Source: Marsupella aquatica
Lineage: Eukaryota; Plantae; Marchantiophyta
Reading direction: 5' to 3'
Assembly: GCA_973895155.1 (NCBI GenBank)
Contig: OZ316894.1
Span: forward strand, 24,922,709 to 24,986,708
DNA: 64,000 bases
Shown here: in pieces, positions 33,547 to 58,112 of the stretch
Position numbering within the stretch: the first letter of the stretch is position 1
Layout: each line of letters starts with the position of its first letter
Program-made: the position numbers and the translations under genes
The notes under the pieces: generated by a model
Databases searched by the model: none
Told to the model about the DNA's origin: nothing
Seen by the model: only the letters and a program-made list of their open reading frames with translations

Positions 33547-34599
33547 CGTAGTATTCTACATTTTGGCCACATCTTCTATACTTACAGAGCAGTGGTTGGT
33601 ATCTGGAAAGTAGCTACAATAGGTGAGTTGGTCGAGGTAAAACATATTTTTGCGACATTGGAGGAATATGGAAATAATTCTCTTCACCCGTAAATGTATG
33701 TGAAAGGGGATCTGGGTGACCATACATGCAAAAGGAGGTAGGAATGGCACACTTGTTCATGGTTTTTGTGCCAATCTTTATGCTGAATGATATCTTCCAT
33801 GGGCAGAAACAATGAGTTTGCCTTGATTTCTCTTGTTCAGTTTATCTAATTGATTGGCAGTGTTTGCCAAAGATTAATTGGTGGTCACTATGGATCTCCA
33901 AGAAGAAGAAGAAACTCGAAACCCGCTCCCACCCTTGTCCGCACAACTAAACTGACTCACACCATTGACCCTCCTTTTGCCTTGGCAGGGCCTTCTAAGG
34001 TCACTCATAGCATGGCCCTTAGTTTCAGTTGCAATAATGATGTGTAACCCTATGCCAGGCTGCCCAAAATTTGTCTAGATGGTAAGGCATCTCTATTTAT
34101 GGTTATTGTGTTGCATAGACTTTTGTAATGTTAAATGTTGACCAATCCAATATGATAACATTGGGCCAAAAAGGTCATGGCTTTTTGGTTGCATTTTAAT
34201 CCATATTCAATGGATTTTGGATTTGCATTTTGTCATACCATGCTTGCTACAAACTGTTGATGTTTATATGCTGCAAGGGAACTATCCTAGCTAACTATCT
34301 CAACGCAGTTAATAGCTCAGTCAAGGTCATAGCTATTACCTTATGTTGATCTCTCTCTCTTGGTCTTGGTTGTTTCTCCTGCGGCATTGCTTGTGTAAAC
34401 CTCGTCTTGGTCATTTCTCCTGCAGCATTGCTTGTGTAAACCTTGTCTTGGTCGTTTCTCCTGCAGCCTTGCCTGTGCATATTAACTCTTCTTGCTAATT
34501 TCTCTTGCTGTCTGGCTTGTGCATGTTCTTCTTGGCCGTTTCTCCTGCGCTCTTGCTTGAATGCTGAAGATCCTACCCAACTGTGGACTCAACTGCGGG

Positions 34600-37180
34600 C
34601 TCAACTGAAGAAACACTTGAGGCCAACTCTAGCTACCATAGATGGACCATGCTCAAGAGACAACTATACAGATTTCCTTTCTCCAAGCAGCAACGTAAGA
34701 CTGAAAACTTTCAGAGTATTGGCACACCAGTAGAAGAATTGGCAGCTATTGGTTATAGCCCGGTGACTCTCAACTTGTGGACATCCTAATCCATGCTTCC
34801 AAATAGTTGGAAAATGTTTGGCACAATCTGTGATGGAGAGAATAGGTACCACCCTTCAGCTTGAGAATTGATTCCCAGTGAAGAAATATGGAAAAACCCA
34901 AACTGATCAACCATGGATGAGAGCTTATGCTTTCTTGGACTGATCCTTCTGCAATGTTCAACAATGAATTGGCCCTTTCAAAGACAGGTAAGAAATCATT
35001 TTGGATGTGAAAGAATTTTTGGAGGAGGAGCCCACCACTATGGGAAACATCAGTGCCATGGATACAAATTAAAGGAAAGCTTGCAATTACTATTCACAAG
35101 GCCATTTTGAACAGGACATTGAAGCATGTGGAGCAGACTTGTGAGCTTCAGTTCAAGGCTGGTGGCCTAAGCAGAACAAATGACAAGCAAATCTGATTAA
35201 ATTTGAGGACACTAAGGATATGTTCCTAGGTCATGATCAGGTACTTCATGCTTGCTTAGAAAATTGATTATGATGACAGCCAATACAAGTCTTGGATACT
35301 AGACAAAGGTGCCAGCACACATCTGAATGGAGACAAGAACCGAATCTTTCATTTTGTAAGTATCAATTGGTCCAACCAATGATCTAATCTTTCATTTTGT
35401 ATCATACCAATTGGTCCAACCTTGAAGGTAACCAATGTTGGAGAGGCAAGTTACTAATCTAGGTCCTATTATGGGTCTTGCTGTTGGACTTGGTTGGGGC
35501 AGCACACCACATGGACATCATCATAATTGCAATTTTGGATGAAACATTAGAGGAGACAATCCATATGCTTCTACCTTGCACCCCCCCCCCCCCCCTCTCC
35601 CCCTCAAGCGGTTTTGAGGTGGAGAGAGATCTGAGCATCTTTTCCAGAAAGCTTGCAACTTGCTGTATGGATTGAAGCAATCTTCATGTGCATGATTGTA
35701 TTATGACACTATTGATCTTTACCTCCAAAAGATTGGCTAGAATCAAAGTGTTGCTAATAACAACTTATATACTTTTGCAAGATGAGTCTATGAGCATCAT
35801 TCTCATTGTCTCCGTTGATGGTCTATTTTCTATTGGCAACAATGTTGCCCAACTTTCAGCCATCCAAGATCAACTCAAGGCCATACTACATAAAATGAGA
35901 GATTTGGGGTTACTCGTTTTAGTTGGATTCAGTTGTACTCCTCTTGGCATTGGCATACATCAGACAAAATATGCTTATGTCAACATACTGACTACATAGA
36001 TGTGATGTGATGGTGGCATGGAAAATTGTAGCCCAGTCATCTGTCCGCTTCTTGATGAATTTCCCTTAGAAGAATAGGCTGCAACTCTTGTTGATCTTAG
36101 CTAACTATCAATACTGCTTCATAGTCTAGAAATTGTTTTATCTAACCAACATGCAATGGAGAAAACATTATATATAATTATGTTGTCAGCTTAAGGGATT
36201 AACTTTGTGTATATTAGGAATACTATGTGTGATCTTAGCCTAATATAAATACTCTTATTGAAAAAAACTAAGAATGTTTTTAATTTCAATTTTAATAACC
36301 TATTTTACTTTATGAAAGTTATATAATAAAAATCTCTATACATTTAAGTTTATAATATATTTTTTCCTCCTACTTATTTTTTTTGGAATACAGTTTCCGT
36401 TACAGTTTATTTTTATATTGATTATATAGTTTGTACAGTTGTTGGTCATCGATCCCCCCAAAGTTATGAGTTGTGCGGGGAGTTGTGTCAGTTGAATTAT
36501 GCAACAACCACATCAAGCACACTTAGATACCATCATTGAATATATATTTTGCTACAAAAGCACTATGGATTATGACCTGGCTCATCTACTTATGAGATGT
36601 CCATCTTAATCTGATTGGCTTTATAGATGTTTAATGGGCAATGAGATGAGAAGCAGTTCCAAACACTCAATCTTAAGTGATACTGTATAAATAATGTAAT
36701 TTCAACTTAATAAACGACTAATAACTTGAAGCAACAAGAGACAATCTACAATACATATCCAAATTGACGACAAAAATTTAGAATATAACGCTTTGCCGTT
36801 TGGCTCACAAGAAGCAATCGATGTATGAAGTCTACTTTTGAAGCTAATTAAGGATTCCAAAAATCTATTTTGTTTGGGTAGAACTCACTAAAAATACAAA
36901 AAATCCTAGAGAACCTGCCTCTGGTCACCTTAAGTAAAGGATCAATTAAGCCAGCTAAAAACCTGACATTCCATCCCGCATCCCATACACAAATTAAGCA
37001 CATAGAAGTGCATCACACTCAATCAGAGAACCAGTACTTGTATGTGATGTTTAAGTTTAAGACTATATCTCAATAGAGCTCCAATCAGCCAACATGCTTA
37101 CAAAATCTTTATTAAGGTCTAAATTTGAACAAAATTCTCAAGTCTAGAATTAACCTCAAACCATACACTTCTTGACAACC
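34600..37180 (+). pseudogene. Highly decayed Ty1/Copia remnant (gag, protease, RT and RNase H fragments)
   Basis: Translated fragments in Copia order: EELAAIGY (gag), WILDKGASTHL (~35293, protease), LIVSVDGLF...KMRDLG...HQTKY (RT), KHIEVHH (~36997, RNase H). Many stops and frameshifts; boundaries approximate. Confidence 0.7.
36190..36462. mobile_element. MITE family A, degenerate copy
   Basis: AT-rich and colinear with 40389-40677 (TTAACTT.GTGTATATT...GATC.TAGCCTAATATAAA...ACCTATTTTACTTTAT). Decayed ends. Confidence 0.6.
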
Positions 37181-37391
37181 CGCTTGACAAAGACAAGGGC
37201 ATTGGTCAGGTATGACAATCAAAGATTGAGATTGTGCTACTATAGTCAAAGATAAACGTATGTACCTAGCAACTATGCCACTACCGGGGCGACTACCAAC
37301 TGAGATTGACACCTACCTTATGGGCAAACAATTTTTGGACATCCAAGCCTTACTGGATTATTTTACCGGTATCCATAAAACTACTTTATGT

Positions 37392-37683
37392 CTTAGGGGC
37401 CTCAATCCAAGGGGTGTCCCATATCACACATCAAAATTTGGGGGAATAAACACCCAAAAACTTAAGTTAATAAAGTTTTTTTGAGAATTTTTTTTACTCT
37501 AATCTAATGGAATATTCAAATTTGGTTTTAAAAAACCCTTTGATTCTTATAATTTTCAAAACTGGATTAAAACAACCCTAATATTCTTCAACAAAAATTT
37601 AAAAGTCTTTCACTAAACCCAATAAAAAACCCTATACTTATTCACACGTGATGGGTTGGAAGAAAAGAAGTGAGAACCCCGGG
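37392..37683. mobile_element. MITE family B, copy 2
   Basis: Ends CTTAGGGGCCTCA / TGAGAACCCCGGG. Perfect 8-bp TSD CTTTATGT (37384-37391, 37684-37691). Confidence 0.85.
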
Positions 37684-37943
37684 CTTTATGTCCTTGAACG
37701 TAAGTCACTTACAACCCTACTATGACACGCCCTTATGATTTTAAATTAAAAAATGACCCCATAGCATCTAGCATTGTCCAACACTGTCCGATGAAGCTAG
37801 AGAAGTAGACATGTAAAAATATATAGATAATATACAACAAAAAACTTATAAATATAATTATTATAACGGATGTAAACATCCAAATTTGCATTTCATCTAG
37901 GTTGCACAATTCATCTGGGATTTTGGCCAAAGTTAGATATCTT

Positions 37944-38220
37944 CTTGGGGGCTAGATCACCAAAAATTGTAGGAACCATGTGCAATAAAAAATATACATT
38001 TTTTTATGGAATTTAGCTAATTTTTTTAAAGTGTATGAGGTATTACAAACTAAAATTTATAGAATATTATTTTATATATACCTTTTAAAAAGTAAAATAG
38101 AAAATTAATATTTGAAATAAAGAATATTCTTAGAATTGTTTTTAATAAAATAAAAATAAAAATATTAAGCTATGATTGCAAGTGATTATCTCTAAATATA
38201 CACTAAGTTAACCTCCCGAG
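37944..38220. mobile_element. MITE family A, inverted copy
   Basis: Reverse-complement match to 40389-40677 (TAGGAACCA, TTAGCTAA, AATATACACTAAGTTAACC). Degenerate TSD GATATCTT / TATGTCTT. Confidence 0.72.
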
Positions 38221-40388
38221 TATGTCTTGTAGGGTTCTTTTTCAACTTCTAACAATACCAATCAAAATTTCTCAACATAAAAATTTGTGGACAAAGAAAT
38301 AGATATGACCTCATAGCTTTGAGTTTGCTTCCCTGGTTGGGGCAATGAATACTTAATTGCTCATGGAATCTTGCAGTAAATTACATTGGAACTTTAATTG
38401 TTACTAGAGAGGGCAGGCATACACAAAGCGGGGTGAGAAAGTATTTTTGTTCATCCATTCCCTTAGGAGTGCCCCTTCCCAGTAAAAACTTTGCATGGCA
38501 AACCTCTATTGTTCCTTTGTCTGTTTGTTTCTTTCTGGGGTGACCTTCATCCCCTTGTGTGTTATTGATTGCCCAACGCTGTTTTTTGAAAAACATATTT
38601 AAAAAAATACATCTATATAGTGTATAACTAGCATTTGTCAACGTGACTTTTGAGAAGCCAATTTTTTGACAAAAATTTGCGTAGGAATTGAGGACTGGTA
38701 GTACTCTTCGCCCATATTACATAGAGCCTGACCCTTAATTAATACCAAGGGAATGAGTATTGGAGCTCTCGTCTATTGGAGCTCTTGTCTCTCTTTACAC
38801 CCGCAAAACATGGACCTGTGGTACATTTCTCTCCACTCTCATCACGAAGGTGATTCTTATTGAAGTTGGCCTACGATAGCTTGCCACATAACAGCTTTAT
38901 ACTTCAATCATAATATTGTAGCATATTTTGGAGTATATTTGTACGCAGGTATAGATATAGCTGTCAAAATTCAAAAACTGCAAAATAGGGAGAAACCACA
39001 CGGTAGGAATCAAGCTTTAGTGATATTTGAAAGTTTTAGTAACAAATGACTAATGTGAGCCTGAATGAAGAACAATATGAATGGTCTCAAGAATGCCTAC
39101 ATGGAGATTCTATGACAAATATAAAGAATGTCCATAATTTACATGTCTGGAAGTAGCTGTCTATAATCTATAGTAATAATAGATCTCCAAGGAATCTTTA
39201 TAATAATGATAGTATATGTCTATAATGTGCATTATTAGATTCTATTTCATTGTATGCAAGGCTCACATGCATTTACTACAACAAATTACTATGTAAATGG
39301 TGAACCAAATCCTCTTTCACCAACTCCTCCTCTAGACTGCCCTCCACCACCTCTCTTTCCTAGTGGTGCCCTGCCAGGTCCTTCCTGGCTCATCGTGCAG
39401 GCCAAAATGCAAACTAAAAGTGCAGCCATTCAGAGTGCAGTTAGTTATAGCCTTTACACCCGCCTTTACATTGTCAAAAATGGTGTTAACAACAGGATTC
39501 ACAACAGTCACATTTGGCAGAGAACAAATGCCTTGAACCTTGAATGAGAGGAATTCAAAGCATCCCAATCTATTGAATTTAAAAAACATTATATGTCATT
39601 AAAAACCGGCTCTTGATGAAAGCGTATGGGATTCTCTGCTTCAAAAACTGGCTCCACCACTTCTGCCTCCATAACAATAGCCTCAATCACAACTCATCCA
39701 GTTCCATCGACCACTGCCTCAGCTTCTTGGATCGGAAGCGATGTGTGAGACTCAATGTCGATGCTAGAACATCTGCTTGACTCTACAGCAGACTCAGCCT
39801 CTGCACACTCATTCTTGTACGTTAGACTTTGCAAAAGTACACAAGAAAAAAAAACACAAGAAGGAAGTTTTGTGCGCTATAGTAGCCTCCAAGAAAAAAT
39901 AGAAAATCTATTGTACATTCTCCAAATTAATACAACCTTCTTAGTTGAAGGCTCTTCAATTGTAAGATCAACCTCCAAGCAAACATTCTTCTGCTAACCA
40001 CCATCGATGTGGATTTCATCCCCTTAGCAGTCTCCTCTGTGACAGTTGTAGAATAAGGTGTGCCATCAGCAGCACACCTCGTAGCCGCTCAAACTTATCT
40101 TTTGCGCTTTGATCATACCTTTCATATGCATCCTAACTCTTGTGTCCTGAAATTTTCATGCCAGCCTTTGGGGGCACACCCTCCGCAGATATCAATGAAA
40201 TGCATGTAGTCCTTCCAGACTTATTAGAAATATCATACCATTAGTCTCAAGACCAACTTCCTGGTGCATAACTCTCAAGCAACCGCCTAGAGTCTTCTCG
40301 CCAAGTCGAGAGATAGAATACCATCCCAATACTATGCATAAGTCCTAGGATTTTTTATACATTGGTAAAACAAAAAAGTAGCACTGGC

Positions 40389-40677
40389 CTCGGGGGGTTA
40401 ACTTAGTGTATATTTTGGGGTACCACGTACGATCCTAGCCTAATATAAACACACCTATTTTATAATGAGAATATTCCAAAAACATTCTCTATTTTCAATC
40501 TTAATGACCTATTTTACTTTATAAAAAGTATATATAATTAGAGAATATTCTATAAATATTGGTCTATAATACCTTCTTTTGCTTTCTACGTTTTTTAAAA
40601 ATTTAGCTAATTTCTATGAAAAATACCTATTTTGGATCGCACGTGGTTCCTAAGATTTTTGATAGTCAACCCCCGAG
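40389..40677. mobile_element. MITE family A, best-preserved copy, inserted in the recombinase gene
   Basis: TIRs CTCGGGGGGTTAACT / AGTCAACCCCCGAG. Perfect 8-bp TSD GCACTGGC (40381-40388, 40678-40685). Confidence 0.9.
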
Positions 40678-40933
40678 GCACTGGCCCTGATGTAGTCAAT
40701 GATTGCTGGCCAGAAGTGCTCTTCATGGCCGTAGTGATCCATAGTGATACGGTAGTTCTTACTAAGTTGCTCATTGTAACGCACGAGTTGTCCATGGACA
40801 TCAGTTGCAAACTCAAAATCAGACTTCATTAAGCCATACAATTCCTTTCCACCTCTAATACAATATTGATTCAACAGATAGAACACTGCCCTCTGCTGCA
40901 GCCCTCTGGAGTGCGATTTCACAGTGCAAGAAT

Positions 40934-41392
40934 TGTTGGGTATTTACTCTTACGTCTAGGTTAGGTATGACATGGTTGGTACAACAACGTGGGTTGGTAC
41001 AACTACGTGGTTAGGTACAACTACGTGATTAGGTACAACTATGTGGTTAGGTACAACTACGTGATTAGGTACAACTATGTGGTTAGGTACAACTACGTGA
41101 TTAGGTACAACTATGTGGTTAGGTACAACTAAGTTGCACACTATATCATAAGAGGCATGTGTGCTTGGAGAGGTAGAACCAAGGCTCATTGTTATGGAGC
41201 CACTTGAGAGAGATAGGGAGAGCTTACACTGTGGAGACTCGGTATAGCCGACGGGCTTAGAGTTCAGTAAAGCTCTCTTGTGTGTTCCCGTGGACGTAGC
41301 CTCAAGGAGGTGAACCACGTATCTCTTGTGTCGACTATTGTGCGTTGGATGGTTCATGGGCTTGCCGTTGCGATCGTCGTCTATGCTCAGAA
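40934..41392 (+). repeat. 5' LTR containing an 18-bp tandem array (GGTACAACTA(C/T)GTG(A/G)TTA, ~9 copies)
   Basis: Starts TGTTGGG. Direct repeat of 47046-47504. Confidence 0.95.
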
Positions 41393-41394
41393 AT

Positions 41395-41406
41395 TGGTAT
41401 CAGAGC
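41395..41406 (+). promoter_or_regulatory. Primer-binding site for initiator tRNA-Met
   Basis: TGGTATCAGAGC, 2 nt after the 5' LTR. Confidence 0.93.
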
Positions 41407-42546
41407 ATGCTTGGGAGGTGACGTGTGTTCGTGACGGGATTTCATGACGGTTTTTCCAACGTTGAGTGTTGGTGGATTTTCCAGAGTTCCATCGCATGGA
41501 ACTTGGAGTTTATGGGCTCAACGGATAGATCAGGGCAAGAGCTTTCTAACGGTGTGAAGAAATCGTTGAACGGAGCTCGTGGTGCAGAGAGATCTAAGTT
41601 TTCGTCGTTCTGGATTTTGTGAAGAAAGTTGGCAATCGACTCGGAGGGAGAAGCGTCAAGTGTTTTGACTCAACGGAGAGATTGAGGCAAGACGATTGTT
41701 TTTGAGTCCGGGATTGGCTCTTTGATGCAAAGAGGAAGGCTAAGCAAAATCAATTACCTTGTTGGACTTGGTGACGGCACCAAGTGCAATTGATCAACAT
41801 TCGTTGTTGACAAGATACCATTTTTTTCTCTTTGAAAAACTGATTCGAAATTGGCTATGGCAATTGAGAGAAATCTGTCATCTTTACCAATTTTTTTCTC
41901 CCTTGTTCTTTCCTCGTTTTGGGTGCTTCTTATATCGATCTTCATCGCCTCGGAGTCTAGTTTCCAAATCTGAAATCGGATCTTGATTTCGTCAAAACCC
42001 GAGTGAGATATCTTGCGTTTGGTGTCGAGGGGTACATTCTGCCGTGTGTATTTTCTGCGCGCGCGACCAGATTTCGACGACGAAGGGTGGTAGGGGGTTT
42101 TGGGGGTTCGAGGACACATGTCAGCCCCTCGATTGTTCTTCCAAAATTCCCACAGGGCCTGTACAAGGGTCATAGAATATTCCAAAAAACCAGAGAGCTA
42201 TTTTTTGACCGTCCGACAAAGATTTCATCCGTCGAACGGTAACTTTTTTGGTTATTTTTTGGCGAGGTCGTAGCCATTGAAGTTGGCAATGCAGCGCACC
42301 AATCACATCGCAATTCCGACAACGGGTTGTACTTGGTATTTTGGTTATTCCCTGAGGTGGTCAAAACGGGGGAGTTTCCCAAGGTTTTACCCACCTCGAC
42401 CGAAATTTGAATAACTTTTCCGTCAAATTTCGATTTTGATTTTGGTTTTCAGTATTGGACTCCTAGCTTTGTGGGCTTGGCGGCGGTGTTGAGTTTCGAG
42501 TTTTTTGAGAAGTTGTGAAAAACAACATTTTTTGTGACTTTCTCAT

Positions 42547-43581
42547 ATGAGTGATTCGGAGGAGTTTTTTGAAGACGTGGAACTTGAAGCACGAGGATCA
42601 CCGCGGAGGTTTCAGGGGCAGAGAGAGGAGCAGGAGGAAGAGCACGTGACACCGATACCATCACCGGTGCGGCGTGTGGTGGAGGAAGCAGTACTACTAC
42701 CGGAGCTCACGGTAAAGAAGAAGATGGGGACTTTCAAGCTTGGGGGACCCAAGTATGAAGTGACAAAGTATGATGGGCGCTCTGACTACTTGCTATGGGA
42801 GAAGCAGGTGAAGGGAGTGCTTTATGCGTCAGGGATGGGCCAACTGCTGAGCCCTCGTGAAGACGATGTTGATGAGAAACAATGGGACCGCATGCAGGAG
42901 CAGGGAGTGTGGTGTGTTACACTCTATCTCATGCCTCCCATCATCAAGCAGTTAGGTGCACATAAGGATTGCATGTCCTTGTTTGCGGAATTGCAGAGCA
43001 AGTATCACCGCAAGGAGTTGTCGAACCGGCTCTACACTTCCTACAAACTGATGAGTTTCAGGATGAAGGAATCTGGTACGAAGTTGCAAGACCATGTGGA
43101 TGCTTTCAACGACATGGTCGTTGACTTGGAAAACCTTGGGGAGACTTTGAATGATGAGACGAAGGCTCTGCAGCTTCTTAGTTCATTGCCTCCATCTTAC
43201 CAGTCCCTATCACGAGTGTTGTTGCATCGTGATAGGGATACCATTTCATACAATGACGTGGTAAGTTCTCTGCTTAGTGATGATCTTCAGCAGAAGATGC
43301 ACATCACGTCACAGCCTTCATCATCTGGTGCTGCCCTCAATGTTAACCATGGGAGGAGTATGCAGCGACCAACTGGGGACCGTAGAACCCAGTTTAGATC
43401 TAAATCCAGATCTAAATCCAAGGGTAAATCCCCTCAGAGGAGGCAGGTGACATGTTGGAAGTGCAACCAAGTTGGACACTTCAAGCGAGACTGTAAGGGA
43501 AAGGCATCGGAAACTTCATCGGCAAATGTGGCTAGGGCTGATGGAGAAGCTGATTTACTCAATGATGAGTATGTTTTATGA
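42547..43581 (+). CDS. gag: Copia Gag, 344 aa
   Basis: KYEVTKYDG...LW, UBN2-type region (DHVDAFNDMVVDLENLG...LLSSLPPSY), CCHC knuckle CWKCNQVGHFKRDC. Ends at TGA 43579-43581. Confidence 0.92.
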   Translation: MSDSEEFFEDVELEARGSPRRFQGQREEQEEEHVTPIPSPVRRVVEEAVLLPELTVKKKMGTFKLGGPKYEVTKYDGRSDYLLWEKQVKGVLYASGMGQLLSPREDDVDEKQWDRMQEQGVWCVTLYLMPPIIKQLGAHKDCMSLFAELQSKYHRKELSNRLYTSYKLMSFRMKESGTKLQDHVDAFNDMVVDLENLGETLNDETKALQLLSSLPPSYQSLSRVLLHRDRDTISYNDVVSSLLSDDLQQKMHITSQPSSSGAALNVNHGRSMQRPTGDRRTQFRSKSRSKSKGKSPQRRQVTCWKCNQVGHFKRDCKGKASETSSANVARADGEADLLNDEYVL

Positions 43582-46500
43582 AGCCGGGGGTATGCCCTGT
43601 GCACGTCATCTAGGAGAGCAGATGATGTGTGGATTCTTGATTGTGCTTGCTCTTTTCATATTTGTTACATTCGTGAGTTTTTCAGTTCTTACTCTGTTTC
43701 AAACGGTTCAGTTCTGATGGGAAATGATCACTCCTGTCAAATTGAGGGAATTGGGTCTGTGAAGATTCAAATGTTTGATGGCGCTGTGCGCACAGTGTCC
43801 GGAGTCAGGTATGTACCTGGCATGCGTAAGAATCTGATTTCACTCGGTGTGTTGGATTCAAATGGTCATCAATGGAGCGTTATTGATGGTGAACTTCAAG
43901 TCAGGTCGGGAGAGACAGTGATTTTGAAGGGGAGTAGACAAAAGAATTTGTATGTGTTACAGGGCAATACTGTATGTGGAGAGGCCAATGTAACCAAGTC
44001 TCACGAGGAGATGACTCAACTGTGGCATTCACGGCTAGGCCACATGAGTGAGAAGGGTTTGGCTATCTTATGGAAGAATGGACTCATTTCTGATTTGCAA
44101 TCTTGTAAATTAGAGTTTTGTGAGCATTGCATTCTTGGAAAGCAGCATCGTCATGCTTTTGGTGTTGGAACTCATCGTTCCAAAGCGGTTCTTGAGTACA
44201 TACATAGTGACGTGTGGGGTCCATCCCCGACTCCCTCACACTCTGGAAAGTTGTACTATGTATCATTTATTGATGATTACTCAAGATTTGTGTGGATTTA
44301 TTTCATGACGCATAAGTCTGATGTCTTGTCCATTTTTAAGAAGTGGAAGGCCCAGGTGGAGAATCAGACTGGAAACACGATCAAGTGTTTGGATACAAGG
44401 GTAAAGAGTCTGAGGTCAGACAACGGCGGGGAGTACACTTCAATGGAATTTGAAGAGTACTGTTCAGAACAGGGGATAACTCGCCATCTCACCACAGTTT
44501 ATACTCCGCAGCAGAATGGTGTCGCTGAGAGGCTCAATCGGACATTGTTGGAGCGGTCACGGAGTATGTTGAGCCAATCAGGTTTACCACAAGAATTTTG
44601 GGCAGAAGCTGTCAATACCGTAGCTTATTTGGTAAATCTTTCTCCTTCTAGTGCTATCAATTTCAAAACGCCGTTTGAGATGCGCTATAAGCGGCAAGCA
44701 GACTATCATGGCTTGGTAATTTTTGGAAGTGATGCATATGCTCTCACACCAAAGCAGAATAGGACCAAGTTGGATCCTACCTCCAGGAAATGTGTTTTTC
44801 TTGGGTACCAGAGTGGTGTGAAAGCCTATAGGCTATGGGATCCTATTGCCTGTAAGCTCGTTGTCAGTAGGGATGTTTCCTTCAATGAATCCAGATTATT
44901 GAAGGAGGAGGAGAATACTCAGGTCTCCCGTACTGACAAAGGAAAATCTCCTATCCCGGATCTCGTTGAGGGGGAGATTGGTTATGAGGTGCATGACCGG
45001 AGAGAAGGAGTTGCTCCAATTATGGAGCTGGTTCCTGTGCCAGAGGAACCAGAGGAGTTTGTTGATGCTGGTGAGCAACAAGTGGATGTTGTTGAGCTTC
45101 AAATTGTACCAGCACACGCAGATCAACCGGAGTCATCGGCTAGAAGAACATCTGGTCGCACTGTACGCGCTCCATCAAGGTATGGACAGTGGGTTGATTC
45201 ATCTCAACTGCAAGAGGATGATTTTACAGCTGATGATGAGGGTGATGCGTTAATTTTGGAAGAAGGAGAACCTTCTTCATTTCATGAGGCAAGTGCTTCA
45301 AAAGAGAAGCAGAAGTGGACTACAGCAATGCAAACGGAGATGCAGTCACTAAAGGACAACAAAACTTGGGAGCTTGTTAAGCTGCCTAAGGGTCAGCAAG
45401 TGGTGGACAGCAAGTGGATTTACAAGCTGAAGGATAATTCCATAGGAGGTGGATCGAAGGTCTACAAGGCTAGATTGGTAGCAAAGGGATTCACACAAGA
45501 GAAAGGTGTGGATTACAATGAGGTCTTCTCACCAGTTGCTAAGTACTCTACAATACGACTATTGTGTGTACTTGTTGTAATGTTTGGTCTGCTCCTAGAT
45601 CAGATGGATGTTGTCACAGCTTTCCTCTATGGCACATTGGAAGAGGTGATCTTCATGAGACAACCGCTAGGTTTTGTAAAGAGAGGACAGGAGGAATTGG
45701 TTTGCAGATTGCTGAAATCCTTGTATGGGTTGAAGCAGTCACCAAGACAGTGGAACAAGCGGTTTGACGATTGGATTCGGTCACAAGGTTTTCACAGAAG
45801 TGTATTTGACCCTTGTGTGTATTTGAAACCGGTGAAGAATGTTGTCTTTGGGTTCATTGTTTTAGTACTTTATGTGGATGACATGCTAATTGCAGCCAAG
45901 GATAGGTCTGAGATTGTTAAGCTCAAGGCACTGCTTAGTGCAGAGTTTAAGATGAAGGACTTAGGGCCAGCTAAGAGGATTTTGGGTATGGAGATCACTA
46001 GGGACTTGGAGGCTGGCAAGCTATGGTTGACGCAGAGCAGTTATGCGAGGAAGGTAATTGCAAGGTTCAACATGGAGAATAGCAAGCCAGTAAGTACCCC
46101 GTTGGCTCCACACTTCAAGTTATCATCAGCGTTCTGTCCTACGGATGACACAGAGAAGGGGTTGATGTCAAAGGTTCCATATGACAAGGCAGTGGGGAGT
46201 CTCATGTATTTGATGACTTGCACTAGACCTGATCTTGCCATGGCTATGGGCAAGGTGAGCAGGTACATGTCGAATCCAGGGAAGGTACACTGGGAAGCAG
46301 TGAAGTGGATTATCAGGTACTTGAAGGGTACCGTGGATCATGGTCTTTTATTTGATGCGAATGCAAAGAATGCTAGATCATTGATTGGCTATGTAGATTC
46401 TGACTATGGACAAGATTTGGACCGAAGGAGATCAACAACAGGATACGTGTTCACACTTGGCGGTGGATGCATAAGTTGGAGGTCTACTTTGCAGAAGTGT

Positions 46501-46854
46501 ATTGCTCAGTCTACTACAGAAGCGGAGTATGTTGCAGCTGCGGAAGCAGCAAAGGAAGCGATTTGGTTGGATAGACTTATCACTGAAATGGGATTGCCAC
46601 AGGGGAATGTGAAGCTCCATTGTGATAGTCAAAGTGCGCTCCACCTTGCTGTGAACCAGGTGATGGATAGCAGAGTGAAGCACATTGACGTCAGGTACCA
46701 TTTTATCAGGCAGGCTGTGTCTGATAATTTGTTTGAGCTAGTCAAGATTGATGGTAAACTCAACCCGGCTGACGCATTTACCAAAGTGATTCCTTTGGAG
46801 AGTTTCTCTAGACACCGTGACGTATTGCAGGTTTTGCAATTGCATTACAAGTAG
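43582..46854 (+). CDS. pol: Copia Pol (protease, integrase, RT, RNase H), in the same frame as gag
   Basis: WILDCACSFH protease; WHSRLGH...CEHC; IHSDVWGP, RSDNGGEY, QQNGVAER integrase; KARLVAKG, LYVDDML RT; YVDSDY, EAEY, CDSQSA, KHIDVRYHF, NPADAFTK RNase H. Open throughout. Confidence 0.95.
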   Translation, partial: SRGYALCTSSRRADDVWILDCACSFHICYIREFFSSYSVSNGSVLMGNDHSCQIEGIGSVKIQMFDGAVRTVSGVRYVPGMRKNLISLGVLDSNGHQWSVIDGELQVRSGETVILKGSRQKNLYVLQGNTVCGEANVTKSHEEMTQLWHSRLGHMSEKGLAILWKNGLISDLQSCKLEFCEHCILGKQHRHAFGVGTHRSKAVLEYIHSDVWGPSPTPSHSGKLYYVSFIDDYSRFVWIYFMTHKSDVLSIFKKWKAQVENQTGNTIKCLDTRVKSLRSDNGGEYTSMEFEEYCSEQGITRHLTTVYTPQQNGVAERLNRTLLERSRSMLSQSGLPQEFWAEAVNTVAYLVNLSPSSAINFKTPFEMRYKRQADYHGLVIFGSDAYALTPKQNRTKLDPTSRKCVFLGYQSGVKAYRLWDPIACKLVVSRDVSFNESRLLKEEENTQVSRTDKGKSPIPDLVEGEIGYEVHDRREGVAPIMELVPVPEEPEEFVDAGEQQVDVVELQIVPAHADQPESSARRTSGRTVRAPSRYGQWVDSSQLQEDDFTADDEGDALILEEGEPSSFHEASASKEKQKWTTAMQTEMQSLKDNKTWELVKLPKGQQVVDSKWIYKLKDNSIGGGSKVYKARLVAKGFTQEKGVDYNEVFSPVAKYSTIRLLCVLVVMFGLLLDQMDVVTAFLYGTLEEVIFMRQPLGFVKRGQEELVCRLLKSLYGLKQSPRQWNKRFDDWIRSQGFHRSVFDPCVYLKPVKNVVFGFIVLVLYVDDMLIAAKDRSEIVKLKALLSAEFKMKDLGPAKRILGMEITRDLEAGKLWLTQSSYARKVIARFNMENSKPVSTPLAPHFKLSSAFCPTDDTEKGLMSKVPYDKAVGSLMYLMTCTRPDLAMAMGKVSRYMSNPGKVHWEAVKWIIRYLKGTVDHGLLFDANAKNARSLIGYVDSDYGQDLDRRRSTTGYVFTLGGGCISWRSTLQKCIAQSTTEAEYVAAAEAAKEAIWLDRLITEMGLPQGNVKLHCDSQSALHLAVNQVMDSRVKHIDVRYHFIRQAVSDNLFELVKIDGKLNPADAFTKVIPLESFSRHRDVLQVLQLHYK

Positions 46855-47045
46855 AGTTTTCTTAAACATTCATTGTAATTACTGATATATGCTCTTCCTC
46901 ATTCCTATGTATTAGGCTACGGCTTAGTTCTGGTTTGCTCTAGTTAGAGAGGGAAACCGGTTTGGTTTCTGTCCAGAACTTCCCGCTGAGGGATCATATA
47001 CATTGGCAGTATTACTCTCCCCTAGACCAGAGTCAAGGGGAAGAT

Positions 47046-47504
47046 TGTTGGGTATTTACTCTTACGTCTAGGTTAGGTATGACATGGTTGGTACAACAAC
47101 GTGGGTTGGTACAACTACGTGGTTAGGTACAACTACGTGATTAGGTACAACTATGTGGTTAGGTACAACTACGTGATTAGGTACAACTATGTGGTTAGGT
47201 ACAACTACGTGATTAGGTACAACTATGTGGTTAGGTACAACTAAGTTGCACACTATATCATAAGAGGCATGTGTGCTTGGAGAGGTAGAACCAAGGCTCA
47301 TTGTTATGGAGCCACTTGAGAGAGATAGGGAGAGCTTACACTGTGGAGACTCGGTATAGCCGACGGGCTTAGAGTTCAGTAAAGCTCTCTTGTGTGTTCC
47401 CGTGGACGTAGCCTCAAGGAGGTGAACCACGTATCTCTTGTGTCGACTATTGTGCGTTGGATGGTTCATGGGCTTGCCGTTGCGATCGTCGTCTATGCTC
47501 AACA
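47046..47504 (+). repeat. 3' LTR
   Basis: TGTTGGG...CTCAACA, followed by TSD AGAAT. Confidence 0.96.
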
Positions 47505-50479
47505 AGAATGTGCCAAGAGAGCGGCCTCGTTTGAGAATGTGATCACAACTGCTTTTTTCCTTGGTAGATTTGCTCTAGTATGCTTTTCCATTGCAAGGAC
47601 ACAAGCAATGGCAACTGGTTTGAAATTGGCAAGGATTTCATATATATCAAAGACCACCTCCTCTTTACCTATCTCAATGATTTCTTTCAAAGTATTTGGT
47701 CGAAGGCTCTATAAAGCCCCATCAGAGTCTGCAATGGGTAAAGATGTACTCCTGCATTTTTTACAAACTTGCTCAATAAACTTATTATTCAGGGCCAGAC
47801 AACTCCTTGAGTTGATTACGAGTCTCTAGGCCTTTAAACTAGCAATACTTTTGCAGGCAATTTCTAGCCCATCGATCCACATCTAGGGGCTCGGGTTGCT
47901 CCCTCCCTCGGCAAGGGTTTGTTGGAATTGAGGCTCCTCAGGAAAAAATTCAAAGGAATTGCCTCCTAGGAGATTGACAACAAGTGGTGCGGTAGTATAG
48001 TCTGAGTGAGCAATCTCAAGATCAAGATCTTCATTATCTTGGTCAGCATTGAGGCTCTGAAGCATTCCAATCAAAGTGAAATCTCCACCAGTAGGTTCCA
48101 CAGTTTCAGTGGCAAAGACAAACATCCCGAACGAGAAAGTTGGAGTGTTACTTCTTACTCCATCTGGCGTTCCAATATATATGTACAAATAGTCGATCAG
48201 CGCCTCCAACATTAAAAGTCTATTAATTCAAAAAACCTCAATTGACTTGAGCACCTAGACCATCAAAAATATATAATCCAAAGTGCCTCAACGGGCTGTA
48301 TTGCATCTAACAACTCTAGCACCTCCATGAAAAGCAATTAAATCAGAAACACCTTGGTTGGCTTCAAAATAAACAAATTAAATAGACTCAGTCGGCTTCC
48401 ACAATAGCCTTGATTGACAATAGCCTTGATCGACAATAGCAAAACGGACACATTGACAAACACAGTTAGTCTGCATTTTCAACAAGGAAAGTGCGCAGAA
48501 AGAAAAATATGATAATATCCGGTCGGTTTTTATGTAAGTTCTACCTGATTTGCATACCAAAGTTAAAAAGCATCGAACCTGCTAAATTACGTTTACTCAT
48601 CTTCAAACAACGATCCAACAAATGAATATATCACATATTTAAAACAAGATCATCACTAAAAGGCTATCAATACAAGTTGGCAAAAAGCAAGAACCTAGCT
48701 ACAAGTCTATGCAGATTACAAGAAACCTGGTTGCAGCGTGACAACTAATAAAAAACTTGATCCTCAAAAGCAACTGACAACACCTTGATTCTCATAAAAG
48801 TTGACTGATGACAACAACTTGATTCTTAAAAGCAGCTGACGACACAATCCAAGAGCAACTCACGACGCCAAAGAAATACAAACAATGAAACAAAAGAGAG
48901 AGCGATGATTGGCAGCTGCTCCTGCCCGATGAGTAAACAGGGAGTAAAATTCACAGCCTGACAGAACGACTATAGATCCAACTGAAGAAAGTGGCAACTG
49001 CTTGTGCCCAATCACCAGATCCAGCCTGATAGCAAGTCCAAATAAGTGAGAAGTAGGAGCTTCCCGTTGGTCAAGTGCCCTAAATCCTATTTCGATTGGA
49101 CACATGCAGTTGGGTGGGATGTGAAGGACGTTAAATCTAAGCTATCCATTTTAAACCAACCGCCAAGATCACACATTGGGAGGGCGATCAAGTTCCTGCT
49201 GTCACTTGGACACGCGCCTGTAAATCTTTGTCGTCGGATCATATACTTTAACGATATGGATCTTGTTAGGAGGCTGTGCATATGTACTATAATCATAGCC
49301 CTTTTGTCCAGTATGGTTGGCCATCCAATCTTGGTAACAAGATGTTGTCGATCCAATCCAATCCAATCCAATCCAATCCAATCTTTAATGTATGTTTAGG
49401 GCCGCTCTCTGTCCCTTCATGAGGTATTGGGCTTCCGTATGTCTCCCCGCATACATCATGGATCAACATACTGTCACCCTAATACCCCATTACAGGGCAC
49501 GACGAGACCATAAACATACACGTTAAGGTCATTGGGTGGTTTTAAAGTTTGTTGGGCCATTCACACTTTGCCATGTTAGCACTTTTTGGGTTTCCTTTTT
49601 GGGAGGATTCATACATTATAAAATAATAAGATATAATACTCCCAAAAAGTGAAAATGAACTCCCATAGAAAATGAAAACTCCCGCAGTGGAGAGACTTGA
49701 AACTTTATTGATAACAAGAAAAAAGTGCATCAATAAGGGTAGTCTGACAAAACCCATGTTCAAGCTATAATATCTAATGTTTCTCACATCTATGTCTAAT
49801 ACGCCTTGTAAGTACTGTGCATAAGTGCCATGCTAGCCAACTACAACATTCAAGATGGTATAAGCCTATGTCTACATGTAACTACAACATTAGTTCCCCA
49901 ACTTCCTGATAGAAATCAAAATAGTGCAGTTGTTGATGGACTGCACTTTAGTGAAGAGTACCTACAGTGGATTCACAACAACGGAGCTAGGCTGCAAGCT
50001 CTCAAAATGCTCATCCTAGTTGTAGTCATGAACCCAACTGTCATTCCTCCAGTCGACCTTACCATTTGCATTTCAAATCACAAGATAATTCACTCTCAGT
50101 CATGGGAGTCAACTCAATCACCATAGCACCATCTCATTTAGAGGAGTTGTCGTCTCAGTTGTGGTAGGGGTCTGGATCATTGTAGGAATCTCTGCTGGAC
50201 CAGCTGCTGGAGCCATGTCTGCACGAGGCAGAGCCATATCTGCACCAGGCGGCAAAATTATACAAATTAGTATGGCTACAGATATTTAACAAAAAATATC
50301 AAAAGGCTGCAAGCTACAGATCAACATTACATAGATTGTACAAGATTCCCTTCATCTCCCTTCTTGCGTTTGTTAGGCAGGACATCATCATCATCTCCAT
50401 TGACCACCTTTTGCTTGAAGCGTTTGTCGCCTCATGAAAATTTGCTTCAAAACTGGATGAGCCACGCACATGTTTGGGC

Positions 50480-50975
50480 CGCTATAACCTTTGACTCTGT
50501 GCTGCAATCTCATCGGGCATAGGCACCTTGGCTCTTATGGCCTGTAATAATCATCCAAACTTTTGCAAGAACGCCTTCAATCACCATACAAGTAACACAT
50601 GTGGTCCTGCCAGATTTGTTAGTGACACTATCTAAAAGCAAACCACACTCCCTATGAATTTCCTTGAGAATGCCACTCAACTTCTTCACAGACATGTGCT
50701 GAGTTGAGTACCATGCATGAGTGCGTGGACTATCAATGCATCGGTAAAATAGAAATATGCCAGCAACAGGCAAATGAGAAATCAAACTCTCGACCGTCTC
50801 AACCATGGAAGTATCGTGACTAGTTATAGCAGTACAAAAATGCTCATCCTGATACCGACCAAGACCAACTTTGTAGTTCTTGGATAGATGTTCATCATAT
50901 CTTACAAACCGTCCATTCTCATTGCAGCCGATTTTGAAGTCTATCTTTGCCAACCAATGCAACTCATCAACAATC
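50480..50975 (-). pseudogene. Crypton-like (DUF3504-type) tyrosine recombinase, copy 2 (catalytic-domain fragment)
   Basis: ELHWLAKIDFKIGCNENGRFVRYDEHLSKNY...FLFYRCIDSPRTHAWYSTQHMSVKKLSGILKEIHRECGL..DSVTNKSGRTTCVTCMVIEGVLAKVWMIITGHKSQGAYAR* is colinear with copy 1. The RG motif is missing upstream, and a stop lies where copy 1 has its final Tyr. Confidence 0.8.
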
Positions 50976-51678
50976 AAAGGCAAAAGCAATGCGAGTATCA
51001 AAATCAATCGACCAATAGTGAGTCACTGACAACACGAAGGATCTACACAATAACTCGAGAGTGCACCACAAATCTACGAATCTACAAAACGTCAGCGGCA
51101 TAATGACAAATACCTGAATAGTGAGCGCCATACAGCTGGCGGCCTCTGGTCGACATTTGATCTAAGCCATTCGATCGGCCCGCCCTAGGGCCTTCAATCT
51201 GAGCTGTCCATCAGTTTTCACAACCCTGACACAACACGACGCTCGGAAGGCCGTCCGTTCCTTCCCGATGTAATCTCCGCCATTCCTTTTGATCATTAAC
51301 ATTGATTAGGGGCTAGACTCTCCCCATAATGCATATGCATATAGGGTAATGACAGTTTGGTCTGGGGTTACTAGTTTATAACCCTGTGACCAGAAAGTGA
51401 GAAAATGCTGATTGGCAGCAGCCGGAAAATGTTTTTGAGGAACAGGTTTGAGAGTAGAACCCCAGCCAAATAATCATTATCATACCTAATACGGGGAAAA
51501 GATTACTCGTCAACATTTTATGGACAGTTATGGAAATAGTGGCACCTAGTAAAACAGATTACACATGGGTAACCTGAATTATGTCGGGACCATAGGGCCT
51601 CCACATGAGCTCGACCCTATATCCCGTTATGGGACGGGAAGAGCCCTTAATCCTATACATATTTTCGAGCATTTCGCG

Positions 51679-52675
51679 ATGGCAGCTATGGTCGCTTCGC
51701 TGGCCTCGGCGATGAGCAATGTCACCTTCGGAGGTTCCCCTTCCACTTCATGCGCTGGGCTAGCCCGCCCTCGCTCAACCGGCGTCGCAATCTCTTGGCC
51801 TTCTTCGTCCACTCGCAAGGTATTGACCTCGACCGAGCTCCGGCTGTTCGCGCTTGTTTTCTTGCTGGTGTACGAGCTGTCGCGGCAGGTTTTCATGTTG
51901 ATTGGCTAGTTGAAATCGAGGGATGAATTTTTCCCATTGTTGTACACTTGCGTGAGTTCTGTTTTCGTTTTCCGTTCTTCAGAGTTGGCCGATTACGGTT
52001 GGATGAACGTTTTGAAGTGTGAGAGAGGAATTTGCGAGTTTGGTTAACTTTGGCCCCGCCTTCCGGCGTTCTGCTCATCAATTGTCGCTGTGGTTTTGTT
52101 AGAGTGTTGGCTTGAATATTAGAGGTGCTCGTGTTGGGGGAGTGGAGGTTCCGAATTCGAAGAGGATAGAGATTTCTCTGCAGTACATTCATGGAGTGGG
52201 CAAGACGACTGCCCGCCAGATTCTGCTGGACGTGGAGCTGGAGAACAAGATGACCAAGGAGCTGACTGAAGAAGAACTGACCATGCTCCGTGATGAGGTC
52301 ACCAAATACATGATCGAGGGAGATTTGGTAAGAATTCTACCCTAAAGCCTGAGATACCTTGATTGTAGCGATTGATCAGGGTTGCCATGATCTCTGTAGA
52401 CCCAGAATAATGAACAAAGGAACTATGGTGAGGAAACTAGTGGAGTAACCTAAGAATCTCTCTATGGGCTCCTAAGCTCAGACTTTATTGATATGTTGTG
52501 GCAGCGGCGGTTCAATGCTCTTGCCATCAAGCGTTTGAGGGATATCCAGTGCTACAGAGGGAGAAGGCACATCATGGGTCTTCCGTGCAGAGGGCAGCAC
52601 ACGAAGTGTAATGCTCGCACCCGTAAAGGCAAGAAGGTAACAGTTGCCGGAAAGAAGAGTGCCCCTCGGAAGTAA
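51679..52675 (+). CDS. rps13: Nuclear-encoded plastid 30S ribosomal protein S13; exons 51679-51819, 52103-52327, 52505-52675
   Basis: Ser/Ala-rich transit peptide, then [29 protein letters not shown]...[54 protein letters not shown] introns. Confidence 0.96.
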
Positions 52676-55266: not shown

Positions 55267-58112
55267 ATGAAATTCAAGGCCACCCTCACAGATTATGGAG
55301 TGGCTCTTCTGGAGCGCCGTAAGAATTTCTCCAGCCGACTCCTTGTTTTTCTCTGCACTAATTTTCCTCTCTGCTGTGAGTTTAATGCGCTTACAAATTC
55401 TCGAGCGAGCCTTGCTTTTAAACAATGGACGAGAAGAGCTGGCTCGAGACGGATTTGTAGCATCTGTTGTTGCGTGCGCAGGTTTTGTGCCAGCGTTTGA
55501 GAAAATTGGGAAGACCTGTCACCTTTATTTGACACCTCGCCACTTCATACTCCTGCACAACGTGCTGAATGTCAATGGCGTCCAGGCTATTGCCCAGTTC
55601 ACCAAGGTTAGCTGCTGTACCCTAAATCCCCAAAACTTGACTGGACTGTGGAATGTGGACCATGGACGTTGATTATTCTGAGAAATTCAGCTTCTCAACA
55701 AATGTACATGTACACTGGTACATTAACGGTACCTGTCGTAGGCGGATTGTCAAGTCCTTGACAGGGTCTTCAGATATACTTTCCTGACGGGTGGCGAAAA
55801 ATTCGAACCGGGTTGGTCCACTTTTCGGTCCAAGTTAAGTCTTGTAGGAGTTCAGATGTGTAACAAGTAACTAATCAATGCCTGCTTGTTGTTGAGTTCT
55901 CACTTTCCATCTGAAGATCTTGGTACCTTTCATGGGCCCTTCCCGACTAGTGGAAAGAAGCACCTGATGTAAGCTCTCAATCGAATCCTGACAATTTGCT
56001 CGTGAGTTTTTTGCGCAGGAAACGATATTTGACGAGTACATGATCTCCAGTCAGAATGATAACTGTATTGCCATCACTGTGGATTTGGGTTTGCTCTCTC
56101 GAGCGCTGAAAAGCAGTGTGAATATGGATGGTGACCAGCTGATAGTGAAACTTGTCAAGAAGGGGTCGTCAATTTCGCATCATAGATTGCCTTACTTGAC
56201 CTTTGAAAGCAAGGTGCGGCAAAGCTTCTAAAATTCCAACTGGATGTCTTCTTTGCTCAGCTTACTATCATACTAAGTTACTGATGTTGGAGTTTCCAAA
56301 CCTAAGTGAATTGTAAGCCATAGTTCCATGGCAAAACCCCTTATTCGTCTGGCCATCAAGTCATTTACGAAACACCTTTTGAAAATTGGGAACCACTGGG
56401 AGGCGTTTGTCGAGGGAAAGCTTTAGGTATTTGAATGCAATACTTACATGCACTCGAAATTCTATTCTTCAAAACATCAGTCTCCAATGAAAACCAGCTT
56501 TTTCGGGAAGCCGAGTAAATTAGTTCATGGTTCGATTCATCATTCATTTATGGTTTGAAAGGGGAGATTATCCATGGAATTTTGCACAGGGCAACTCGAT
56601 CTGCCTTATAAGCAAGTGAAACTATCTTGACACCTGATATCCTTGAACTTGAGAGAAACTGGCTCTAGAAACCCTGTCCAATATATGCTGGAGAAGAACT
56701 GGACCGCAGAGAGGATCTGACCCCACAAACGCCTGAGCTATAAAAGGTGGAGACGATCTGAAGCTGGAATTGCCGCAGATTCATTGTCGAAGACTTGACT
56801 GCATGAAATCCAGCTTGTGACCATTTTCTGATATAACGCGTAAACTTATAATCTCTGTATTTCTGACAAGCATTTTTCAAATTGTGCTCTGTAGTAGGGC
56901 TTCAGGTCTGCGATTGTGCAGGATGTGCCAATTTCAGAGCCATTGAGCCGAGCAGATGTAGCAGATATCCAGGCTGCTCTGGACCTAGCTCAGACTTTAC
57001 CGCAGGTAAGAGTTTAGTTTTCCCACCGACGATGAGTACACTTTTATCAGTATCCAGCAGCAGTCTCCATGAAAGAATGATGCTAATCCCATTGTTCTTT
57101 TATCAGATTTCTTTTTAATACCAATTTTATTTTGTCCTTAATGTACTTTCTGAGCAGACTTTGGTCCAAGTCCCAGACATCGTCAAGCTACAAGCTTTGG
57201 TGGACCGCCTTAAGAATGTGGGAGAACAACTAGATGTTGGAGTGACTCAGTGTGGAGATCTACATCTTAACGTATCAACAACGTCAGTCAAAATTGGCTC
57301 CGAGTTTAGAAGGCTGAGAGTCGTTGGAGTTCGTGGTAAATTTTTTATACCTGCATCAGTGACATTTAGGCAATACTTGTGCCTTTGGAACCAAACCAGT
57401 TATTGACATTTCAGTAATGCCAATGGGTTGATTATTGCAGCCGATGAGCCAGCGGTAGACCCAGACGCAAATTCCTCAACTCGCCTAGAACAGGCTATAC
57501 AGAGATCAGAAGCTTCAAGGGTTGTAAGTGACAGAAACATCTGAATGCCACGCTGCGGTTTGTCGTGCTTTCAGAGGATTGAGTACTGCATGTGGGTGAT
57601 TGATGAGGCTCCGCTGGTCCCTCCCTAGAAGGAATGCGGGAGGACATTAGCAGTGCTTCGTAACATTGAGTTCGAATTCTTAGCCAACACCATTATCTGC
57701 CTGACCTGATTCGATTGTCCTACGGTCTTTGATTTACAGAGAGTCAATGTCAAGCACTTTGCCAAGAGCCTACAATGCAACCTCACCAAGCCTGACGCAT
57801 CCTTCTGTGGTAAGTTCCTCAATTAAAATTCCCGCTCCGTTCCTTAGAAGCAAATTATTTACCCGGTAGCAGTAGCCTGTACCTTGCCCGTTTTCAATTT
57901 TAGTCTAGATCTTTGCACATTGTCCTCCTGATCAGAAGAAACATTCATGGTTTTAAGCATTCATGCTTTCACGTGTGGTTCCGTGTGCAGGAATTTCTCC
58001 AAATAATGGTTGCTTGCTCATGATGTTCCAATACTTTATTCCGGGAACAAGACAAACTGATAATTCCCTCAGCCTTCACTACAGATTGCCAGTGATTATA
58101 GACGAGAACTAG
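55267..58112 (+). CDS. HUS1: 9-1-1 checkpoint clamp subunit HUS1; exons 55267-55318, 55482-55606, 56019-56213, 56898-57005, 57158-57335, 57441-57523, 57740-57809, 57991-58112
   Basis: MKFKATLTDYGVALLERRFVPAFEKIGKTCHL...GVQAIAQFTK/ETIFDEYMISSQND...LVKK...LPYLTFESK/GFRSAIVQDVPIS...VKHFAKSLQC...CLLMMFQYFIPG...SLHYRLPV matches plant HUS1. All introns GT-AG with consistent phases. Confidence 0.94.

Follow-up and report, generated by a model that had tools for sequence, protein, structure and literature searches.

Two decayed neighbouring gene copies of a probable Crypton-type tyrosine recombinase lineage in the liverwort Marsupella aquatica

Analysis of a 64,000-nucleotide stretch of the Marsupella aquatica genome (GenBank assembly GCA_973895155.1, contig OZ316894.1, positions 24,922,709 to 24,986,708 of the forward strand) showed two neighbouring minus-strand remnants of a tyrosine recombinase gene, here called copy 1 and copy 2. 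The whole stretch is called the window, and all coordinates are positions within it. The two remnants are, with good confidence, dead neighbours that derive from two distinct subfamilies of one Crypton-type DNA transposon lineage, found in seedless land plants. The protein of this lineage has a predicted Cre-like fold and carries lysine in place of the histidine of the HxxR motif. Neither copy is able to encode a working enzyme.

The gene remnants and the elements in and around them

A first-pass annotation, made from the sequence alone, had placed two minus-strand remnants within 40090..50975, and six-frame translation showed every motif that it quoted at its given place. The interval does hold the remnants, and both genes extend further: copy 1 occupies about 48170-39400, and copy 2 continues to about 49890. 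The features are as follows (P0110, P0109, P0005 and P0024 are related proteins).

47510..48170, minus strand: copy 1, 5' coding part with the N-terminal motif (at 48146) and a predicted core-binding (DNA-binding) domain, with stops and frameshifts; tblastn to P0110 residues 3-248, 39% identity, E 3e-31; family profile match 48068-47490
40934..47504, plus strand: Copia long terminal repeat (LTR) retrotransposon inside copy 1, 5-bp target duplication AGAAT on both sides, LTRs of about 459 nt; self-comparison and Pfam gag, rve (integrase) and RVT_2 (reverse transcriptase, RT)
40686..40933, minus strand: copy 1, start of the catalytic domain, with the first Arg (codon 40856) and Lys (40760); 65% identity to P0110 residues 251-327
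40389..40677, no strand: high-copy miniature inverted-repeat transposable element (MITE) of 289 nt inside copy 1, short inverted ends, 8-bp target duplication GCACTGGC; self-comparison, summed contig depth about 1000-fold
40014..40388, minus strand: copy 1, remainder of the catalytic domain, with Lys replacing His (40222), second Arg (40213), His (40144) and catalytic Tyr (40117), broken by two stops and three frameshifts; matched to P0110 by tblastn in four pieces of 56-79% identity
39814..39936, minus strand: copy 1, likely GT-AG intron of 123 nt, 32% GC, T-rich, with an in-frame stop inside, as judged from sequence only
39400..39813, minus strand: copy 1, C-terminal tail with the terminal motifs of the family; motif positions, and weak similarity to the corresponding tails in P0005, P0109 and P0024 (E 0.04-1.6)
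48877..49179, no strand: repeated non-coding stretch upstream of copy 1, with a 19-nt inverted repeat (arms 48995-49013 and 49094-49112); second contig with 48 differences in run X3
50336..50968, minus strand: copy 2, catalytic-domain remnant, first Arg absent, Lys replacing His (50617), catalytic Tyr codon now a stop; 60% identity to Calypogeia P0109 residues 272-460, E 7e-67; profile match E 3e-70
49890..50335, minus strand: copy 2, putative intron-like stretch (about 50331-50240, proposed from its letters) and C-terminal tail; tail match to P0005, E 9e-4
50969..51303, minus strand: non-coding sequence in place of the 5' gene half of copy 2, also present at other places in the genome; not matched by the family profile, further contigs at 51103-51331
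49385..49526, no strand: small self-inverted element by a (CCAAT)n run (49351-49385) on the 3' side of copy 2; self-alignment
51304..51652, no strand: MITE-like element flanking copy 2 on its 5' side, its inverted ends imperfect and 26 nt long (51304-51329 and 51627-51652); summed depth 1266 (part high-copy) against 9-21 in run X1

On the minus strand at about 48170-39400, copy 1 is complete as a gene though decayed, and at least five stops and several frameshifts interrupt it. The codons of all six catalytic positions are still present, as placed by the profile and motif positions, and about 14 residues are absent beside the MITE in comparison with the relative P0110. Both insertions lie where the first-pass annotation had put them, and the two deletions that it proposed for rebuilding the gene were right, with the reading frame continuing across both sites. 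The order of events at copy 1 would have been insertion, decay and then the later MITE and Copia hits. The LTRs of the Copia element were identical over 456 nt, with differences confined to the last bases, and the insertion with its near-identical LTRs is very young. The non-coding stretch at 48877-49179 is possibly a repeat near the 5' end of copy 1.

Further observations concern the inserted elements themselves. In the Copia element, at 42538-46854, gag (347 aa) and pol (1090 aa) share one reading frame and are separated by one stop codon, and the 3' fragment of a related LTR was found inverted at 11333-11556. Several diverged MITE-like relatives are grouped no farther than 8 kb from the MITE of copy 1 (33291-33547, 36195-36380, 37388-37684 and 37948-38220); 36195-36380 and 37948-38220 are relatives of that MITE, and 37388-37684 was very high copy in all four runs compared.

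Copy 2 is truncated on its 5' side at 50968, just past the motif of the first catalytic Arg, with about the first 230 codons gone, and it is likely a deletion derivative of another subfamily. The pattern in the first-pass annotation had pointed to the wrong catalytic tyrosine; this residue is the second Tyr after GHKS, and in copy 2 its codon is the stop at 50512-50510. The inverted-repeat elements on both sides of copy 2 (49385-49526 and 51304-51652) are related to each other. Within the latter, 51340-51411 showed far higher repetition than the remainder, with many contigs ending at 51340, and is possibly a second, nested small element. As a candidate end of the recombinase element this piece was rejected, since it more probably belongs to the separate MITE-like element. 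For 51304-51652, a flanking Harbinger-type TTA duplication was likewise not upheld; the inverted repeat runs past the TTA, and the superfamily was therefore not assigned.

The two copies are homologous beyond chance and clearly diverged, as had been claimed. Their protein alignment scored 109, while the maximum of 1000 shuffles was 52. Identical residues numbered 22/50 and 23/44 in the two aligned parts, protein identity was only about 45-50%, and nucleotide identity was about 61% in the catalytic part. In the tree, copy 1 paired with P0110 (69% identity, support 100/98) and copy 2 with Calypogeia P0109 (64%, 100/91). These different partners place the neighbouring copies in separate subfamilies, so that they did not arise by local duplication. 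The family profile, run over all six frames, found no third copy in the window.

Predicted fold, active site and relatives of the protein

A phmmer search with the copy 2 frame against 1.84 billion representatives returned 104 proteins at E ≤0.001, with 38 at 1e-10. DUF3504 matched 28 of the 102 relatives scanned at E ≤0.01; 16 were above the cut-off, 15 of them in the weak tail of the search. The best-scoring of the close relatives reached 16-27 bits with DUF3504, below the cut-off of 29.7, and a family lying below the Pfam cut-offs may explain annotation as "hypothetical protein". A profile of 30 near plant-side relatives aligned with the DUF3504 tail protein P0077 over 282 columns (99.5% probability) covering both domains, and the catalytic residues (Arg, Lys, Lys/His, Arg, His and Tyr) line up.

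The AlphaFold2 model of the whole relative P0005, built from a 109-row alignment, had a mean confidence (pLDDT) of 76.5, with 318 residues at ≥90. Its best structural match was Cre (Foldseek E 3.5e-8; Z 19.3, rmsd 3.8 over 292 residues), again over both domains. An earlier fold from a 10-row alignment was poor (pLDDT 46) and gave weak Cre rows only. No solved structure related by sequence was found with the family profile. In the Atlas, DUF3504/Phage integrase clusters appeared at 0.98, a value taken as a lead only, and the top sets were DUF3504; one look-alike set was ALOG/Phage integrase, and ALOG itself had no match in the 102 relatives scanned. The single protein of the family is thus likely, on model evidence, a Cre-like tyrosine recombinase. 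The kinship to DUF3504/CryptonA recombinases put forward in the first-pass annotation was borne out by way of whole relatives (profile alignment, Cre-like model and Atlas) rather than by a direct Pfam match on the window.

Both window copies have lysine at the position of the HxxR histidine. Among the first 104 matches this position was Lys in 61, His in 21, Arg in 4 and another residue in 2, and it was uncovered in 16. In the near-side tree rows with a residue there, Lys was found in 55/59, Arg in 3 and Gln in 1. The lysine is family-wide and is therefore not a change due to decay. In the Lys-side rows that cover them, the remaining residues were kept as follows: first Arg 24/28, Lys 63/63, second Arg 84/93, His 60/61 and Tyr 53/55. 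The canonical R-H-R-Y tetrad of active CryptonA/DUF3504 members is not what these proteins carry. According to the available text of PMC2747268, the His and Trp positions of Cre are occupied in type IB topoisomerases by Lys and His, respectively; this is the same pattern as here, so a basic residue at the HxxR position is compatible with catalysis. The family-wide change from His to Lys is a natural test of the role of that position in recombinases. A sub-branch of P0097, P0139 (Calypogeia), P0050 and P0103 has Arg instead of Lys at the same position, a second change there.

For the tree, 78 of 143 rows were kept (at least 125 of 205 core columns filled), and P0063, a chance match to a SET domain, was dropped. 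Species names came from a lookup of 30 matches by cluster and from other lookups, and most matches carry no species name. One long branch (support 100/99) splits 62 non-His rows from 16 His-bearing rows. All 12 species-named proteins on the near side come from a liverwort, a moss and ferns: Calypogeia fissa (4), Ceratodon purpureus (1), Adiantum capillus-veneris (6) and A. nelumboides (1). The named proteins on the far, His-bearing side are molluscan (Mytilus, Mercenaria and Haliotis). Near relatives, a Calypogeia protein among them, are 64-69% identical to the window copies, and the His side is about 20-25% identical. Calypogeia proteins stand at no fewer than three places on the tree. The genes beside the copies point to a land-plant host, and the nearest named relatives suggest a liverwort.

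Copy number, mobility and alternative explanations

Counts of differing contigs were used as evidence of repetition, because contig depth is not copy number. The locus was found in public DNA runs of two studies over 47505-49342 (about 1.8 kb) with 0-1 differences, and one of these may be the source of the window. Single sites in copy 2 were covered by 5 differing contigs in run X1 and 11 in X3, and the summed depth of copy 2 in X1 was 164-181 against 9-21 for its flanks. Several paralogues were found per named species, on separate contigs in Adiantum and Calypogeia; three of the Adiantum paralogues, 98-99% alike as judged by branch length, are each on a contig of their own. The several diverged contigs of copy 2 per run and the several paralogues per named plant species agree with the multi-copy family proposed earlier. 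Copy 2 was listed for no RNA run, a result that has no bearing on its expression. A locus bearing a relative was found neither in metagenome contigs (two scans) nor in viral contigs (one scan).

In the Crypton model as summarised in the available text of PMC13465315, from which the circle, the ends and the mobility are taken, an intact copy would encode one recombinase, whose N-terminal domain would bind both element ends and whose catalytic Tyr would cut through a 3'-phosphotyrosine link. The element would leave as a DNA circle and would then recombine into a short matching site; RT would play no part, and a true target duplication would not arise. Among the copy pieces the sole RT is that of the Copia element, and RT families matched 0 of 62 open frames (at least 52 aa, in 34500-40933 and 47505-51900), where a decayed RT could escape; this agrees with the first-pass remark that no RT of its own is visible.

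Several results weigh against the Crypton-type reading. DUF3504 (PF12012) and Phage_integrase (PF00589), which the first-pass annotation had proposed as a check on the window itself, gave no match to window open frames at E up to 10. The only near-side protein above the DUF3504 cut-off was the distant P0087 (30.1 bits against 29.7). The fold evidence, being a prediction, concerns the relative P0005 and not the window protein. The tree is unrooted and was built without curated Crypton, Glomhopper or DIRS references; its far side consists only of tail matches from a single search, and its 208 columns included the His/Lys one. The subfamily of copy 1 is low-copy, with a single additional contig, about 87% identical across 39464-40225, in X3 and X4 and none listed in X1. 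An RT fusion was found in one of the 102 relatives, P0037, which, judged by a motif, resembles a Ty3/gypsy gene-model fusion.

Element ends belong to the same side of the balance. No ends, terminal repeats or empty sites were found around the copies, and repeat searches of the flanks gave short pairs at chance level; the word transposon therefore rests on copy number and kinship. Upstream and downstream flanks had no match above shuffles, the copies being old, and an internal mirror of an end junction was not found, with 11 of 12 flank comparisons equalled by at least 35/300 shuffles. The stretches upstream of the copies folded no better than shuffles. A similar 25-nt motif was seen upstream of both copies in the same orientation (49125-49149 and 51187-51211) and was equalled by 10/300 shuffles; as a shared subterminal site it is only a hint from the sequence and unconvincing after 12 tests.

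One alternative, which we regard as unlikely, is that copy 2 is a captured fragment within an inverted-repeat element, with related ends at about 49385 and about 51655, and was not moved by the recombinase. The related elements on its two sides fit this, as do their outer ends, which are weakly alike when inverted (score 29, without a shuffle control), the cut in the gene at 50968 and the contigs of other copies that enter the right-hand element to 51331. However, the whole is not framed by a target duplication, each flanking element has an inverted-end pair of its own, and in X1 and X3 a contig of 2202 nt has its match limited to 50569-50924 and continues for about 1580 nt toward the 5' side of the gene. 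Capture of copy 2 would also leave the origin of the gene unchanged.

It is much less probable that the recombinase comes from an RT-bearing retroelement (DIRS, Ngaro or VIPER type) and that both copies have lost the RT part of this element. An RVT_1 domain does lie behind the recombinase in P0037, and the ALOG/Phage integrase set of the Atlas is a DIRS-type architecture in the available text of PMC3537659. Against this, RT matched none of the 62 frames near the copies and was not found in 101 of the 102 relatives, many of them short fragments; copy 1 begins with the N-terminal motif of the family itself, about 1.2 kb from the next element; and the top Atlas sets are DUF3504. The likely intron fits movement at the DNA level and argues against an RNA step.

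An equally slight chance is given to domesticated host genes, like animal ZMYM/QRICH1, or their pseudogenes, with no transposon involved. The replaced tetrad His would suit such genes, since the loss of tetrad residues marks domesticated DUF3504 genes in the available text of PMC3212892, and the QRICH1 structure 9hjt was among the fold matches (Z 12.8). The residue that stands in its place is, however, a conserved Lys, and most rows that cover the remaining five positions retain the catalytic residues there. Both window copies are broken, the copies are many and diverged, and the Calypogeia proteins are scattered over the tree. What was found is not the domesticated pattern of ZMYM2/3/4, QRICH1, KCTD1 and KIAA1958, namely an intact, conserved single-copy gene with most catalytic residues lost.

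Contamination or recent transfer from an animal or a mycorrhizal fungus is hardly credible and largely refuted: the nearest characterised relatives are animal CryptonA and the Glomhoppers of Glomeromycota, for which animal-to-Glomhopper transfer is proposed in the available text of PMC13465315, and most near-side proteins have no species name, but copy 1 holds a Copia element with its target duplication, the neighbours are plant genes (an ALE2-type kinase and S13), the locus recurs in the runs of both studies (with the possible source among them), and the closest relatives stand at 64-69% against about 20-25% for the His side. Ancient transfer into early land plants may have occurred.

With the Crypton-type reading retained, a wider proposal appears doubtful. 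It holds that this is an undescribed lineage present in land plants since before the split of bryophytes and vascular plants, still mobile in seedless plants and lost in seed plants, with a Cre-shaped enzyme whose site of topoisomerase IB type (Arg-Lys-Lys-Arg-His-Tyr) would have a chemistry or substrate unlike known Cryptons.

Known systems and the surroundings of the locus

The locus is a distinct plant variant of the Crypton/DUF3504 kind, here as two dead copies without defined ends. With the CryptonA/DUF3504 Cryptons of animals (Kojima and Jurka 2011, available text of PMC3212892) it shares a single protein with core-binding and catalytic domains and no further recognised domain, the profile alignment over 282 columns and the occurrence of deletion derivatives; terminal repeats were not found here and are reported to be lacking in animal Cryptons. 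It differs from them in its land-plant host, the Lys in HxxR, scores below the DUF3504 cut-off, the long separating branch and being known from dead copies. The family is taken to work in the manner of CryptonA. The DUF3504 cut-off is not reached, the canonical His is missing and the tree is unrooted, and the family was therefore not filed under CryptonA. Glomhoppers, the CryptonA of Glomeromycota (available text of PMC13465315), also have mostly truncated copies, nested insertions, introns in many copies and boundaries that are hard to define. Reportedly they retain R-H-R-Y, and the DUF3504 profile served to detect them, unlike the copies here; this comparison is by description, as the tree has no named Glomeromycota protein.

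Cre (PDB 2hoi and 1pvr), which matched the P0005 model best over both domains, has 14% identity to it, and its pentad His and Trp correspond to the Lys and His of the family (available text of PMC2747268). Type IB topoisomerases have the same pentad pattern as the family, with a weaker fold match in the catalytic domain only (Z 11-12.5), while the N-terminal domain here is predicted to be Cre-like. The Lys common to the family and these topoisomerases may be convergent. The ALOG domain of streptophytes, derived from a DIRS1-type element (available text of PMC3537659), is a known tyrosine-recombinase trace in early land plants; unlike the present copies, it is a domesticated DNA-binding domain alone and comes from an RT-bearing element.

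This lineage was not described in the literature searched, which did not extend to Repbase, Dfam, most subscription papers or preprint supplements, where the family may already be recorded. Table 1 of the Crypton survey lists no plant host (PMC3212892), the available text of PMC13465315 names none and its supplement gave 0 matches for six plant names, and Table 1 of a 2022 review of land-plant transposon groups has no tyrosine-recombinase element or Crypton (PMC9033089). The available text of PMC8226300 does not mention Crypton. Weighing against novelty, Table 2 of PMC4438587 counts Crypton among groups in all taxa, land plants included, with no element described, and the available text of PMC8245426 puts a Crypton label on Brassica repeats, again without describing an element. 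The first-pass remark that such elements are poorly documented in land plants therefore holds for this lineage in the literature searched and not for the Crypton label, which had already been tallied (PMC4438587, Table 2; PMC8245426, in its available text).

A lineage common to liverwort, moss and fern would enlarge the inventory of plant transposons by one group. Its intact relatives could supply a plant-native site-specific recombinase and a test system for the Crypton circle model. The locus itself, being a fossil, supplies one more example and no mechanism.

Elsewhere in the window, a ribosomal protein S13 gene with introns lies at 52103-52675, 450 bp from the MITE-like element beside copy 2, and run X5 carries a diverged version with another intron length. 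Other host genes, at 21123-28385, 15515-17065 and 55271-55669, comprise an ALE2-type receptor kinase (one 722-aa frame), a Methyltransf_16 frame, an alpha-amylase exon, pieces of a GDSL lipase and a Hus1-like piece. An open frame of 711 aa at 1990-4125 had no Pfam match; judged by eye from an RT motif at its start and a zinc knuckle, it is presumably the C-terminal half of a LINE ORF2. Degenerate tandem arrays were found with units of about 35 nt (10787-12434, interrupted by the LTR fragment) and about 42 nt (30708-30969).

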